Assembly: GCA_951406725.2 (NCBI GenBank) | Contig: OX597839.1 | Coordinates: 744,001 to 808,000 of the forward strand | DNA from: Octopus vulgaris | Lineage: Eukaryota | Length of the DNA: 64,000 nt | Reading direction: 5' to 3' | Shown here: one piece after another, positions 2,358-63,571 of the stretch | Layout: every line of letters starts with the position of its first letter | Position numbering within the stretch: position 1 is the stretch's first letter | Position numbers and translations under genes: made by a program | The notes under the pieces: generated by a model | Seen by the model: the letters and a program-made list of their open reading frames with translations, nothing else | What the model was told of the DNA's origin: nothing | Databases searched by the model: none

Positions 2358-2545
2358 ACCTCGTGTGTACCGTTGGCGAGTTTTTTTCCTCTGTCTTCCC
2401 TTCTCCTATGTTTCCGACGAAGAGCTCCACTCGAAACGTTAAACCCTCCTTCTTCCCTTCTTTCCTGAGCGTCCAATAATACTATATTTGTTCCACGTCC
2501 TTGCGTTGTTGAGTTTTTTTGTGCTTTCTTGTTTGGATTAACTAT
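2358..2545 (+). mobile_element. Penelope-like pLTR fragment with a degenerate hammerhead motif, ending in (TA)n
   Basis: GTTT-CCGACGA-A-GAG-ctcca-CTC-GAAACGTT-AAAC at ~2410-2444. Confidence 0.55.
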
Positions 2546-3049
2546 ATATATATATATATATATATATATACAGACATATACATGCATGTGTGTGTATGTG
2601 TGTGTGAGTGTGTGTGTGTGAGTGGGTGTCTCAGATCATTTGTATTTCTAACGAACTTACTAATGCTCCTTTCATTAAATACAATAACACTAAGTCGGTC
2701 TGGTTGTATATCTTTCTCACCACATATATTTCTTGTAAACTTGTTATGAATCCATAGAGCAGATATGTTGGCATTAAATTCTCATTGTACTAATACTTCT
2801 GTCTTGAAGGCATTGAGCTGGCAGAATCGTTAATAGGCTTGGTGGCATTTTGTCCATCTTTACATTTTGTGTTCAAATTTCTCCAAGGTTCACATTTCCT
2901 TTCCTCCTTTACAGGTCAATAAATTAAGTATCAGTCAAGTACTGGGGATGATGTAATCAATTTGCCCCTCCCCTAAAAGTGCTCATTTTGTTCAAAAATT
3001 TCAAACCAATAATATGTTTGTCTTCATTTTTTTTTCCATTATTCTTCAG

Positions 3050-3176
3050 TGCAACGGAAAGGATTCTGCAAAAATGCAAAGACATTGTTGATATTAAAAC
3101 GGAAGATGGTTTTACTGCATTACATTTTGCAGTTATTCATGGTCACCAAGAAGTTGCTAATACACTACTAACTTTG
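3050..3176 (+). CDS. MIB2-like exon B (ankyrin repeat)
   Basis: ttcttcag|T...TTG|gtaagt. Reads ATERILQKCKDIVDIKTEDGFTALHFAVIHGHQEVANTLLTL, matching the Mind bomb VD-K-EDGFTALH ankyrin motif. Confidence 0.9.
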
Positions 3177-3224
3177 GTAAGTGTTCACTTTATGAGAGGG
3201 TGCTGAAAAGTTACTGGTTTGGGT

Positions 3225-3396
3225 AAAAGAAAATACAGGAAAAATTTCCACTTTTTTCCTTATTGTCCTAAAATTTTCGTTAGTCTTGCAACCTTTTCAA
3301 TAGTTTTCACTCTCAAGACTATTGAAAAGGTTGCAAGACGCAACGAAAATTTTAGGACAATAAAAATAAGAAAAAAAAGTGGAAATTTTTCCTGTG
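3225..3396. mobile_element. Fold-back element with hammerhead-like arms (copy 1; copy 2 at ~3940-4095)
   Basis: ~80-bp inverted arms. The arm reads CTA-TTGAAAA-G-GTTGC-aagac-GCAAC-GAAAATTT-TAG. Confidence 0.6.
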
Positions 3397-58600: not shown

Positions 58601-61600
58601 ATATATATAGGAATTGTGAGATTAATAATCTAGTGATCTAGTGTTAACTCAATATATGTATGTTCGAGATCAAAGTGTTAGATGAATATAGAGCGGCAAT
58701 AAGCAAAATGGATGTCATAGGAAAAACAAGGGTTATGTTACGAACACACGCAGACACACACACACACACACACACACATATATATATATATATATGTATG
58801 TATATATATATATATATATGATCGACAGAATATAGAAATATACTGCGCAAAAACACTACTTCTATATCAAATTATATCATACGTGTTGCCATAGTAGTGA
58901 CACGCCCACGATAACTAAACGACCGCTACAAGTTAAAAGCAAAATCAATGCATGAAGAAGAAAACAGTAAGAAACAAACAACAAACTTTCAACCTCCGCC
59001 TCTTTCACTTTCTCTTTTTGTTATATCGCATCCTCATTCGTAGAAACACAGGTAAGTTGGCATGCAAAGAGAGAGCTATATATTCTGAAGCAAATTTGAG
59101 ACGCATTCATTTCTGTAACTGATTTAAAGCTCTGTCTTGACGAGAACCAAACTTTCCAGGCAACACAACACGTCTCTATATCTACAATTAAGGTAATTTC
59201 CTATAATAGCATCATAATTGCTTTTATAATTTTTGAGATCATTTTAATATGGGCCTATACACACACACACACACACACACATTTCAATAACGTAATTTCA
59301 GAACGTAGTCCAAGGAATCCCTAAAAAGATCAGAAAAAGTTTTTAAAAACGAAAGAATTCTAAAAAATTGCAATTCCTCAGTGACTTTTAGGCCCTCCTG
59401 AATATGTATAAATATATATATATGCATGCCTACATACATACATTGATATATATATATATATACATATAAATATACATTTGCATATATATGTATATATATA
59501 TATATATATATATATATATATATATATATATATATATATACAGATACATATATCGCACATATATATTGATATGCACATATATATATATATATATATATAT
59601 GTATACATACACATACACACTCGCACAAATATATATACATATATGTGTGTGTAGATTGCTAGCCACGAAATAGTTTTTATTTTCTCTCCTTGTTTCTTTC
59701 CGTGGTAGAGCGTAGGCTCGAAAGGTTAAACACTTCTTCAGTTCCCGAGCGTTAAAGTAATACATCTGTTTGTTATCTACAGCACCTCTCTTTATCTTTT
59801 GTTTTATTTTGTGAATTCTCCCTGTATATATATATATATAGGAATTGTGAGATTAATAATCTAGTGATCTAGTGTTAACTCAATATATGTATGTTCGAGA
59901 ACAAAGTGTTAGATGAATATAGAGCGGCAATATGTAAAATGGATGTGATAGTAAAAACAAGGGTTATGCTACGAACATCAATAGTTTGCAAATGTGTATG
60001 CTATGAAATGCAAGGATTTCTTAGCTGTGTGCCTACATAACAACATAATATCCTATAACTGCATCGCAGCCTCGAAAAATGTTATATATATATCAAGAGA
60101 GAGAGACCGAGATAGATAGATAGATGTATTTATGTATATATATACATTATTTACATACATATATATTGATACATTATTTGCATAGCTGCATATATATATA
60201 TATATATATTAATGAGTATATGTATATATATATATATATATATATATATATATATGTGTGTGTGTGTGTGTGTGTATATATGAATGTACATATATACGTA
60301 TATATATATACGTGTATATATCTATATCAATAAAATTCTCTGTGGGTGGGTGCGTGCGTGCTTTCTTTATGCACAGTGAAATCGCTGGATTAGTGTGTAC
60401 GAAAGTTTTTCATTACTCGGGGAAGATTCCCGGGGAATGAAATTTCGGCTCTTGCCAATACAGAGGGTTGAACACTCTCCTTCGTATATGAAACTTGTGA
60501 ATTTTTTTCAACGGTATTATTCTTTCACTTTTGATAACAATATTGTTTCACTTTTATTCTTTCACTTTTGACTTCCGGGTTTTTTCAGCGATACATTATT
60601 GTTTCACTTTTACACAAATTATGGCCTGTACTCATATTTGGGGCTGCAGCTTCTCCTATACGATTATTCTGAGTTTTTTTTTCAGTGGATTCATATGTTT
60701 TCGATGACGGACATTCCGAATATGCAAAACGCCATGTTTTCAAAATTTTTAATTACCTCACTCACCCTAAATTTTTTAATATTTTACTTTTTTTTCGATT
60801 ATTTCTCTCAATCTATGTGAATAAATACGAGATTAAGATTATGGAAAAATATTTTTTTTTATTTCAAATTTTCTATGAAGAGATGAATAATTGTTTACGT
60901 TACTTCTATTATTTACATTGGACGGATATGTGTCCTCATCTTGTTTGTCTTTTACCACAACATTTTGGCTGGTTTACTTCCAGCCTTCATCGGCTGTGCT
61001 GGGCATATAGCGTAGAGGTTAAGAGCGCGGGATACTATCCCCAAAATTACGAATTCAATTCCAGAGAGTGTTTTGAATAAATAATAATAATAATAATGAA
61101 AATAATAATAATAATAATAATGAAAATAATGATAATAATAATAATAATATTAATGAAAATAATAATAATAATAATAATAATAATAATAATAATAATAATA
61201 ATAATAATAATAATAATAATAATAATTAATATGTATGTATCTATGTATGCATGTATGGATATTTACGTCTCTAATTATGCTTGTATGTATGTATATATAT
61301 ATGTGCATATATGTGCGAATGCGTAAAAAGTATACACACACACAGGCACACACGCAGACACACACACACACACACATATATATATATATATATGTATGTA
61401 TATATATATATGATCGACAGAATATAGAAATATACTGCGCAAAAACACTACTTCTACATCAAATTATATCATACGTGTTGCCATAGTAGTGACACGCCCA
61501 CGATAACTAAACGACCACTATTAGTTAAAAGCAAAATCAATGCATGAAGAAGAAAACAGTAAGAAACAAACAACAAACTTTCAAACTCCGCCTCTTTCAC

Positions 61601-62130
61601 TTTCTCCTTCTGTTATATCGCATCCTCATTCGTAGAAACACAGGTAAGTTGGCATGCAAAGAGAGAGAGAGCTATATATTGTGAAGCAAATTTGAGAGGC
61701 ATTCATTTCTGTAACTGATTTAAAGCTCTGTCTTGACGAGAACCAAACTTTCCAGGCAACACAACACGCCTCTATATTTACAATTAAGGTAATTTCCTAT
61801 AATAGCATCATAATAGCTTTTATAATTTTTGAGATCATTTTAATATGTGCCTATACACACACACACACACACACACACACATTTCAATAACGTATTTTCA
61901 GAACGTAGTCCAAGGAATCCCTAAAAAGATCAGAAAAAGTTTTTAAAAACGAAAGAATTTTAAAAAATTGCAATTCCTCAGTGACTTTTAGGCCCTCCTG
62001 AATATGTATAAATATATATATATACATGCCTACATACATACATTTATATATATATATATATATATATATATATATATACATATAAATATACATTTGCATA
62101 TATATATATATATATATATATATATATATA

Positions 62131-62771
62131 TAATAGAAATATTAAAATAACTAAGTCTCTCTAAAAGAGAACAGCGGCAGCGTTCCCGGAAAATAATAGT
62201 TATCGCCATACTAATATGGCATTCTTATAAAAACTGTATCCATATACCTCGAGAAAAAACTACTTGCTGTCCGCTTATTAGCTTTCCATGAGGCCATCGC
62301 CTTAAGTTTCAACAATAGAAATATTAAAATAACTATTTGATACACAAACTGTATCCATATAACCTTCGAACAAGGGAGGTCAGTCGCTCCACACTACTTG
62401 ACCGGCAGCTACAGACGCGTTTCGGAGTATTGCCCCTTTTCAATGCAGCGTAGCCATATTAGTTTGGCGATAACTATTATTTTCCTGGAACGATGACGCT
62501 GTTCTCTTTTAGAGAGACTTAGTTATTTTAATATTTCTATTATTGAAAACAAGTGGATGTATTCCACCGAAACTAGGAATACTCCGAAACGCGTATGTAG
62601 CTGCCGGTCAAGTAGTGTGGAGCGACTAACCTCCCTTGTTCGAAGGTTATATGGATACAGTTTGTGTATCAAATAGCTAACTTAAGGCGATGGCCTCATG
62701 GAGCTAATAAGCGGACAGATTTTTTCTTATTTTTATTAGAATGCCATATTAGTATGGCGATTACTATTATT
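62131..62771. mobile_element. Patchwork fold-back Penelope-like element inserted in (TA)n of tandem unit 4
   Basis: Four pairs of inverted segments. Absent from the equivalent (TA)n in units 1-3. Confidence 0.75.
62408..62449 (-). ncRNA. Minimal type-I hammerhead ribozyme motif with U3-A8 core
   Basis: The - strand reads GCTGCA-TTGAAAA-GGGG-caata-CTCC-GAAA-CGCG-TC^-TGTAGC. Confidence 0.7.
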
Positions 62772-63571
62772 ATATATATATATATATATATATATATATA
62801 TACATATACATATATCGCACATATATATTGATATGCACATATATATATATTTATGTATACATACACATACACACTCGCACACATATATATACATATATGT
62901 GTGTGTAGATTGCTAGCCAAGAAATAGTTTTTATTTTCTCTCCTTGTTTCTTTCCGTGGTAGAGCGTAGGCTCGAAAGGTTAAACACTTTTTCAGTTCCC
63001 GAGCGTTAAAGTAATATATCTGTTTGTTATCTACAGCACCTGTCTTTATCTTTTGTTTTATTTTGTGAATGCTCCCTATATATATATATATATATAGGAA
63101 TTGTGAGATTAATAATCTAGTGATCTAGTGTTAACTCAATATATGTATGTTCGAGAACAAAGTGTTAGATGAATATAGAGCGGCAATAAGTAAAATGGAT
63201 GTCATAGTAAAAACAAGGGTTATGCTTCGAACATCAATAGTTTGCAAATGTGTATGCTATGAAATGCAAGGATTTCTTAGCTGTGTGCCTACATAACAAC
63301 ATTATATCCTATAACTGCATCGCAGCCTCGAAAAATATTATATATATATATATATACATATATATAAAGAGGGAGAGAGAGAGAGAGAGAGAGAGATAGA
63401 TAGATATATAGTTAGATAGATAGATGTATATATATATACATTATTTACATACATATATATTGATACATTATTTGCATAGATGCATATATATATATATATT
63501 TATGAGTATATGTATACATATATATATATATATATGTGTGTGTGTGTGTGTGTATATGAATGTACATATAT

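Follow-up and report, generated by a model that had tools for sequence, protein, structure and literature searches.

The closest described counterparts of the motifs reported here are the minimal type-I hammerhead ribozymes (min-HHRs) of Penelope-like elements (PLEs), and our subject is a set of such hammerhead-bearing repeats in a 64,000-nucleotide stretch of the Octopus vulgaris genome (contig OX597839.1, forward-strand positions 744,001 to 808,000 of assembly GCA_951406725.2), hereafter the window. The cited papers are represented here by excerpts, to which all statements about them refer. PLE min-HHRs carry an extra base before stem II, include inverted pairs, and have low activity as dimers, and U3-A8 cores occur in Schistosoma with ∼1,300 matches (Cervera and de la Pena 2014, PMC4209133). 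Natural U3-A8 was also reported by Perreault et al. 2011 (PMC3088659). A CX4CXXC-type linker is tied to Neptune PLEs, for which insertions with a tail and an inversion have been described (Craig et al. 2021, PMC8557442). The tail has been explained by two internal reverse-transcription starts, with the element's protein nicking and extending both strands of AT-rich DNA (Frangieh et al. 2024, PMC11167929).

The octopus motifs resemble PLE min-HHRs (PMC4209133) in being type I, with a short palindromic stem III and an extra nucleotide before stem II, and in forming many consensus families per genome that include inverted pairs and consist mostly of single truncated copies. The extra nucleotide and, in most families, a G10.1-C11.1 pair match that published description, though our scan did not demand them. 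Unlike in the published set, U-A is the commonest pair at core positions 3 and 8 in octopus (13 of 24 matches with U at position 4), and G3-C8, A3-U8, C4, A6U, and GCAA variants occur, whereas only CUGA and UUGA cores appear in that source. We conclude that the octopus motifs are real, PLE-linked, and mostly of a known kind, minimal PLE hammerheads and natural U3-A8 having already been published; what is new is the existence of G-C and A-U families, the prevalence of U-A, and a pair of non-autonomous types that bear PLE end signatures. Our overall reading, to which we assign a probability of roughly 0.8, is that the sites singled out in the window are mostly decayed copies of minimal type-I hammerhead repeat families, that the 3-8 pair is family specific, and that the copies were likely inserted by Neptune-type PLE proteins.

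The 3-8 core pair across repeat families

An earlier note on this stretch had proposed that several hammerhead-bearing elements lie in it and that positions 3 and 8 of their cores change together. The scan descriptor comprised stem I, N3-N4-G-A-N7-N8-A, an optional extra base, stem II, GAAA, a palindrome, UH, and the return strand of stem I, with positions 3, 4, 7, and 8 left free. Window matches were compared with 60 local dinucleotide shuffles, and matches in a genome-wide sample of 120 evenly spaced 10-kb stretches (1.2 Mb) with 25 shuffles; the source assembly holds 2.80 Gb in 227 contigs, ∼30 of them large. Families are labeled by their sites in the window: F1 (2410), F2 (3319/4024, core 3322), F3 (4741), F4 (5171), F5 (45325), F6 (53735), F7 (55112), and F8 (62408/62443).

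The 1.2-Mb sample yielded 30 matches, compared with 5.5 in shuffled sequence. Among the 24 with U4, 23 were Watson-Crick at 3-8 (13 U-A, 5 C-G, and 5 G-C), and the shuffles gave 0.64 paired and 1.4 unpaired U4 matches. The window is AT-rich and filled with microsatellites; there, the strict scan found six matches against a shuffled mean of 0.4 (maximum, 5), and U4 together with a Watson-Crick 3-8 pair was found in four matches against 0.03. Chance matching in AT-rich, repeat-rich DNA would explain background-like single matches, such as the sixth window match, at 24562, and eight singletons in the 1.2-Mb sample (one of which is a PLE motif). For the families, however, chance is refuted, and its probability is negligible: the observed counts were never reached by shuffles, and shuffled matches were more often unpaired than paired at 3-8. 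All seven clusters of at least two matches were paired (48 of 5,040 permutations), a value that overstates the case because four of the clusters are U-A and may share one origin.

Each family had its own prevailing pair: C-G in F1 (34/37 copies), F4 (21/30), F5 (26/27), F6 (38/40), and F7 (34/38); U-A in F2 (62/66) and F8 (37/40); and G-C in F3 (59/65). A PLE family outside the window had A3-U8 in all 20 fetched copies (of 40 scored). This variant and the GCAA and C4 variants of PLEs were spotted by eye and stand outside the statistics, with the A-U and C4 variants coming through a paired-only filter. The 3-8 core pair occurs in all four Watson-Crick forms (C-G, U-A, G-C, and A-U) in the octopus genome. 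Two more U3-A8 families, with an ACCGGU palindrome, are absent from the window (L174:2772, L225:8313, L189:2073, and L191:8996). Copy numbers extrapolated from the sample, and therefore rough, are ∼20,000 each for F1, F2, and F3 and >30,000 for F6 and for F7.

The consensuses of F2, F3, F4, F5, F7, and F8 have the N3-U-G-A-N-N8-A core, a Watson-Crick 3-8 pair, GAAA, and UH. Stems I and II and a palindromic stem III are present. Stem I spans 3 bp in both F2 and F4 and is mismatched at its closing position in F5; the F3 motif is clean (stem I, 7 bp; stem II, 5 bp). Position 4 is C in 28 of 37 F1 copies, and F6 departs from the conserved A6, having U at position 6 in 35 of 40 copies. Based on these consensuses, the proposal that positions 3 and 8 change together holds, as covariation between families and not within them. 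None of the consensuses reverted to C3/G8. A core-spanning 20-mer of F3 had 5,777 exact, G-C occurrences genome-wide, and 20-mers changed at both positions were found at 17 places, none of them C-G. Compensation within F3 was not found: 7 of the 17 double changes were paired, and 6 of these were A-U, as expected from two transitions. The family was also present in contigs of runs labeled as three other organisms, where no alternative letter at position 3 or 8 was seen among the matches listed (5% threshold). A canonical CUGANGA search does miss such variants, as had been anticipated, with 18 of the 23 paired U4 matches lost.

The literature searched held no report of a natural G3-C8 or A3-U8 family; Lunse 2017, which lay outside that search and reportedly lists ∼150,000 PLE-associated hammerhead variants, may already contain them. 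Neither hammerheads in octopus nor PLE-dependent short interspersed nuclear elements (SINEs) were reported in the literature searched. The excerpts of PMC3088659 and PMC6765202 contain no natural G3-C8 or A3-U8, and G3-C8 appears elsewhere only as an engineered swap, one that partly rescues activity (PMC11167929; passing mention in PMC3884650).

Insertion anatomy and the link to Penelope-like elements

The 3′ ends of the repeats fell into two classes, which lie ∼55 to 62 nt apart in F2, F3, and F8 and ∼35 nt apart in F7. Fold-backs paired one long arm with one short arm in 24/26 cases for F2 and 22/26 for F3. Of 16 distinct F8 insertions, 13 likewise combined a long with a short end and were flanked by TA-rich DNA on each side; of the remaining three, two displayed a single end and one lacked the inversion. 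F2, F3, and F8 insertions show the PLE tail/inversion signature. They share with Neptune PLEs (PMC8557442, PMC11167929) an inverted 5′-truncated copy, an optional tail, and AT-rich or (TA)n targets, with tails of ∼55 to 62 nt versus the 30 to 40 nt published for PLEs. An inverted 5′-truncated copy with a tail-type end was not seen in F1 or F6. The description of most elements as fold-backs was correct for those at 3319, 4024, 4741, 5171, and 62408 but not for the 2410 family (1/32 copies) or the 53735 family (0/24). Similarly, the (TA)n setting applies to F8 ends and, under a strict rule, to between 14/62 and 15/24 of ends in other families but to none in the 55112 family (0/24). In folding predictions, each complete fold-back forms a single hairpin (−94.5 and −91.2 kcal/mol) and is therefore predicted not to be a ribozyme.

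TA flanks are also what TA-targeting DNA transposons resembling miniature inverted-repeat transposable elements (MITEs) would leave, with the motif being incidental, and the F2 fold point is nearly fixed (a gap of 21 in 15/26, where the query spanned the fold point). However, the two ends are unequal in the F2 and F3 proportions given above, the fold point varies in F3 (gaps of 33 to 59) and varies widely in F8, and single-arm copies are common. The absence of equal terminal inverted repeats and the variable fold points largely refute a MITE origin, which we consider very improbable.

Insertion by PLE proteins is instead consistent with the genomic neighborhood of the motifs. A GIY-YIG search of the genome gave 150 scored matches, many in 781-amino-acid (aa) frames. 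In 12 of 30 GIY-YIG loci, a same-strand U3-A8 motif was located 0.7 to 1.2 kb downstream, and one more locus had it inverted upstream. One locus (L261) is a full PLE with a 781-aa open reading frame (ORF) for reverse transcriptase (RT) and GIY-YIG domains, a CX4CXXC linker, (TA)n at the 3′ end, and the U3-A8 motif in both terminal repeats. At L261:400-1750, the 5′ terminal repeat is separated from the 781-aa RT frame by an apparent upstream coding region. As in Neptune PLEs (PMC8557442, PMC11167929), the RT is followed by a C-terminal GIY-YIG domain, with the CX4CXXC linker and pseudo-long terminal repeats (pLTRs); the clade was assigned by linker motif and domain order, without a tree. In the Atlas, a PLE protein of the octopus genome is placed beside HTH_animal/GIY-YIG clusters, one of them mostly molluscan.

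Other PLE families have A3-U8, U3-A8 with GCAA, or C3-G8 with C4 on the 3′ side of their GIY-YIG ORFs; GCAA replaces GAAA in five copies of L273/L274, and C4 is present in 3/4 copies of L262/L263. No hammerhead was recognized 3′ of the ORF in the PLE family L270/L271. In one truncated copy, F6 follows a GIY-YIG-like frame at a distance of ∼700 nt on its 3′ side (E value of 0.0025, below the Pfam cutoff, at one locus). The expected linkage to RT/GIY-YIG ORFs was thus found for U3-A8, A3-U8, and C4 variants and, at that single locus, for F6. Taken together, the hammerhead repeat families are likely ends and parasites of PLEs.

The F7 and F8 families and the proposed mechanism

F8 is a 362-bp head-to-tail unit with 41% GC that is non-coding (longest frame, 73 codons) and carries one type-I hammerhead per unit, with up to nine hammerheads in a row. 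Units within an array differ by 0 to 1 base of 362, the circular fold has a z score of −7.7 versus 60 shuffles, and the hammerhead is present in 136 exact 34-mer copies over many chromosomes. The unit falls within the retrozyme definition of a 150- to 450-bp non-coding tandem unit with one type-I hammerhead, and judged by its sequence, F8 is a young retrozyme-like family; being young, it is a promising one in which to look for circular RNA. Like metazoan non-LTR retrozymes (PMC7229834; bioRxiv 10.64898/2026.07.22.740005), it combines a non-coding tandem unit, a highly self-paired circle, and one type-I hammerhead. It differs from them (PMC7229834) in its U3-A8 core and in the PLE tail and inversion ends in (TA)n, and its circular RNA is putative. 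These ends represent a direct footprint of the PLE machinery.

In F7, a tRNA-like head is connected through an (AAT/AAC)n linker to a canonical motif, and the 5′ end frequently bears an inverted 3′ piece. Several copies have this conserved head in sense orientation ahead of the hammerhead, and putative A and B boxes were matched in it by eye to their consensus; ARAGORN returned no tRNA genes in the window, and a relaxed run gave noise. The order of promoter then hammerhead is that of the SINE-like hammerhead elements of Schistosoma (PMC6765202), unlike which F7 joins a tRNA-like head to PLE-type inverted ends.

These two families bear on whether all of the repeats are merely 5′-truncated ends of autonomous PLEs rather than distinct non-autonomous elements. 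That origin was shown for F6 at one locus, and some F2 and F3 copies extend farther upstream than the usual fold point. On the other side stand the 362-bp head-to-tail arrays of F8, with no ORF above 73 codons, the tRNA-like head upstream of the F7 hammerhead, and the fact that most F3 copies end ∼25 to 30 nt above the core. We find truncation doubtful as a general account; F6, and perhaps F1, probably fits it, whereas F7 and F8 probably do not. The interpretation given in the earlier note is supported overall, with the qualifications that decay affects most copies in the window and that part of the families represent 5′-truncated ends of PLEs and not separate non-autonomous elements, as seen for F6 at one locus.

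Under insertion by Neptune-type proteins, the PLE protein would nick AT-rich DNA on both strands (extrapolating from Frangieh 2024, PMC11167929), reverse transcription would start at two internal sites ∼60 nt apart, and the two cDNAs would join head to head to give the fold-backs. Selection on the hammerhead tertiary fold in the source elements probably accounts for the retention of the 3-8 pair. The RNA would be expected to show weak cleavage, either by dimerizing via the palindromic stem III or with assistance from protein. In the case of the 362-nt F8 RNA, cleavage would release a unit-length, possibly circular RNA that would then serve as the template for tandem arrays. Because the cut site lies within inserted copies, the templates were presumably uncut or religated.

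Several points weigh against this account. Cleavage and expression of the hammerhead motifs stay predictions from sequence, and in vitro, hammerhead mutants do not affect insertion and no reads end at the cut site (Frangieh 2024, PMC11167929). The cut site is intact in inserted copies, and stem I of F2 is just 3 bp. F6 with A6U (35/40), a PLE family with GCAA, and F1 with C4 have all spread, showing that elements can multiply without a perfect core. Among 50 GIY-YIG loci, mostly of one family, there was no autonomous parent for F2, F3, F4, F5, F7, or F8. Independent 3-8 swaps may number only three if the U-A families share one origin, and the F2, F3, and A-U family loci were chosen by similarity to one copy.

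Some of the same observations suit a motif kept as a folded RNA signal (e.g., for protein binding or packaging) and not as a catalyst, with the 3-8 pair conserved for shape only: the A6U change in F6, which has ∼35,000 estimated copies, the GCAA variant in one PLE family, the dispensability of hammerhead cleavage for insertion in vitro (PMC11167929), and the very low activity of min-HHRs (PMC4209133). Nevertheless, the consensuses of the other families retain G5, A6, A9, G12, A13, A14, and UH, and the C3G/G8C exchange partly rescues cleavage in a PLE hammerhead (PMC11167929); we consider a purely structural role unlikely. A bolder version of our reading is that all four Watson-Crick 3-8 pairs are used in active ribozymes of one genome, including an unreported G3-C8 family (∼20,000 motifs) and an A3-U8 PLE family, and that PLE proteins mobilize both a SINE with a tRNA head and a young retrozyme that has a U3-A8 core and a circular RNA. 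This we put forward tentatively, at somewhat less than even odds.

Motifs and neighboring features in the window

The earlier note had counted at least seven unrelated elements with a hammerhead layout (Table 1). Every site that it cited proved to be a copy of a family whose consensus follows the minimal type-I layout, but only five window motifs are intact: 2414+ (C3-G8, with C4) and, all U3-A8, 3300−, 3322+, 4027+, and 62443−. The families are unrelated as claimed, except that those at 2410 and 53735 cross-match at ∼79 to 82% over ∼43 nt. Among the damaged cores, 4781− combines A4 with a disrupted stem II, 4829+ carries U9, and 5175+ has a damaged GAAA, its true stem II closing near 5220 and not at the first GAAA. 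The palindrome is imperfect at 45333+; C4 together with a broken UH or GAAA marks 55145-type copies, and the A6U of 53737-type copies is the family-wide change noted above. The cut in the F8 hammerhead is predicted between 62414 and 62413. An Rfam scan of the window returned no hammerhead among the best 150 of 480 matches, which were microsatellite or hairpin noise.

Table 1. Hammerhead-family features in the window (positions of the 64,000-nucleotide stretch)
Feature	Position	Strand	Remarks
F1 element, ends in (TA)n	2358..2542	+	Minimal hammerhead 2410-2444, C3-G8, C4 (CCGACGA)
F2 fold-back	3234..3397	.	Two intact U3-A8 hammerheads (cores 3322+, 3300−), stem I only 3 bp
F2 fold-back, long 3′ end	3946..4216	.	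Intact U3-A8 at 4027+; opposite arm 4005− has U3-G8
F3 fold-back, (TA)n flanks, one long and one short end	4600..4953	.	Cores 4781−, 4829+ decayed; family G3-C8
F4 hammerhead region	5092..5247	+	C3-G8 core 5175, long stem II, damaged GAAA; short inverted arm 5092-5137
F5 element, ends in (TA)n	45226..45592	+	C3-G8 core 45333, long stem II, 1.1-2.1 mismatch
F6 PLE 3′-end stub	53687..53857	+	Stems kept, core A6U
Further F6 copies (local duplication)	56438-56608, 58396-58525, 59652-59823, 62906-63076		
Further F6 copy	40932-41048		
F7 inverted 3′ piece, damaged hammerhead (core near 55148)	55032..55219	−	Joined to tRNA-like head on + (∼55160-55219)
F7 duplicates	57753-57940 and 60876-61063		
F8 rearranged inverted insertion of 362-bp unit	62132..62770	.	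(TA)n both sides, one long and one short end
F8 intact U3-A8 hammerhead	62408..62449	−	Stem I 6 bp, stem II 4 bp, palindrome ACGCGU, C17

A tandem duplication of a ∼2.7- to 3-kb block, at 85 to 94% identity, spans 52800-63600 of the window and continues beyond it (G000:C26, to ∼830 kb). The block carries F6 and F7 copies, and the young F8 insertion sits within it. Because of this one local duplication, the five 53735-type and three 55112-type copies at 53 to 63 kb are not independent.

Fragments that we take to be RTE-like reverse transcriptases adjoin F1 (2064-2405, − strand) and F5 (44634-45167, − strand); they are likely unrelated neighbors. A near full-length non-LTR retrotransposon, presumably R4/Dong-like, is spread over several frames at 48455-51926 on the + strand, its RT being followed by a CCHC and restriction-like endonuclease region, and a related fragment is found at 23597-24400. 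A ∼7-kb triplet-periodic GGT/GGC array (26700-33600) holds open frames of >1,200 codons (Gly-rich on +, His/Thr-rich on −) and is followed at 33708-34103 by what we assume to be an LTR-retroelement pol-like fragment. A 184-bp SINE-like tandem unit occurs at 15342-15710 (two copies) and 21276-22754 (eight copies) on opposite strands, with 93 to 96% matches, and a + strand frame at 10059-10499 with a RING-finger-like cysteine pattern is possibly a host exon.

The four-way swapping of the 3-8 pair provides natural evidence for selection on the tertiary hammerhead fold in PLE termini, in contrast to in vitro findings that PLE ribozymes are weak, protein-assisted, and dispensable for insertion. The variant families thus offer natural test cases for the role of these weak ribozymes, and the end structure of F8 connects a unit of retrozyme type with integration by PLEs. 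Counting by CUGANGA overlooks roughly three quarters of the intact motifs in the octopus sample; if the variants are active, canonical searches would miss most hammerheads in such genomes.

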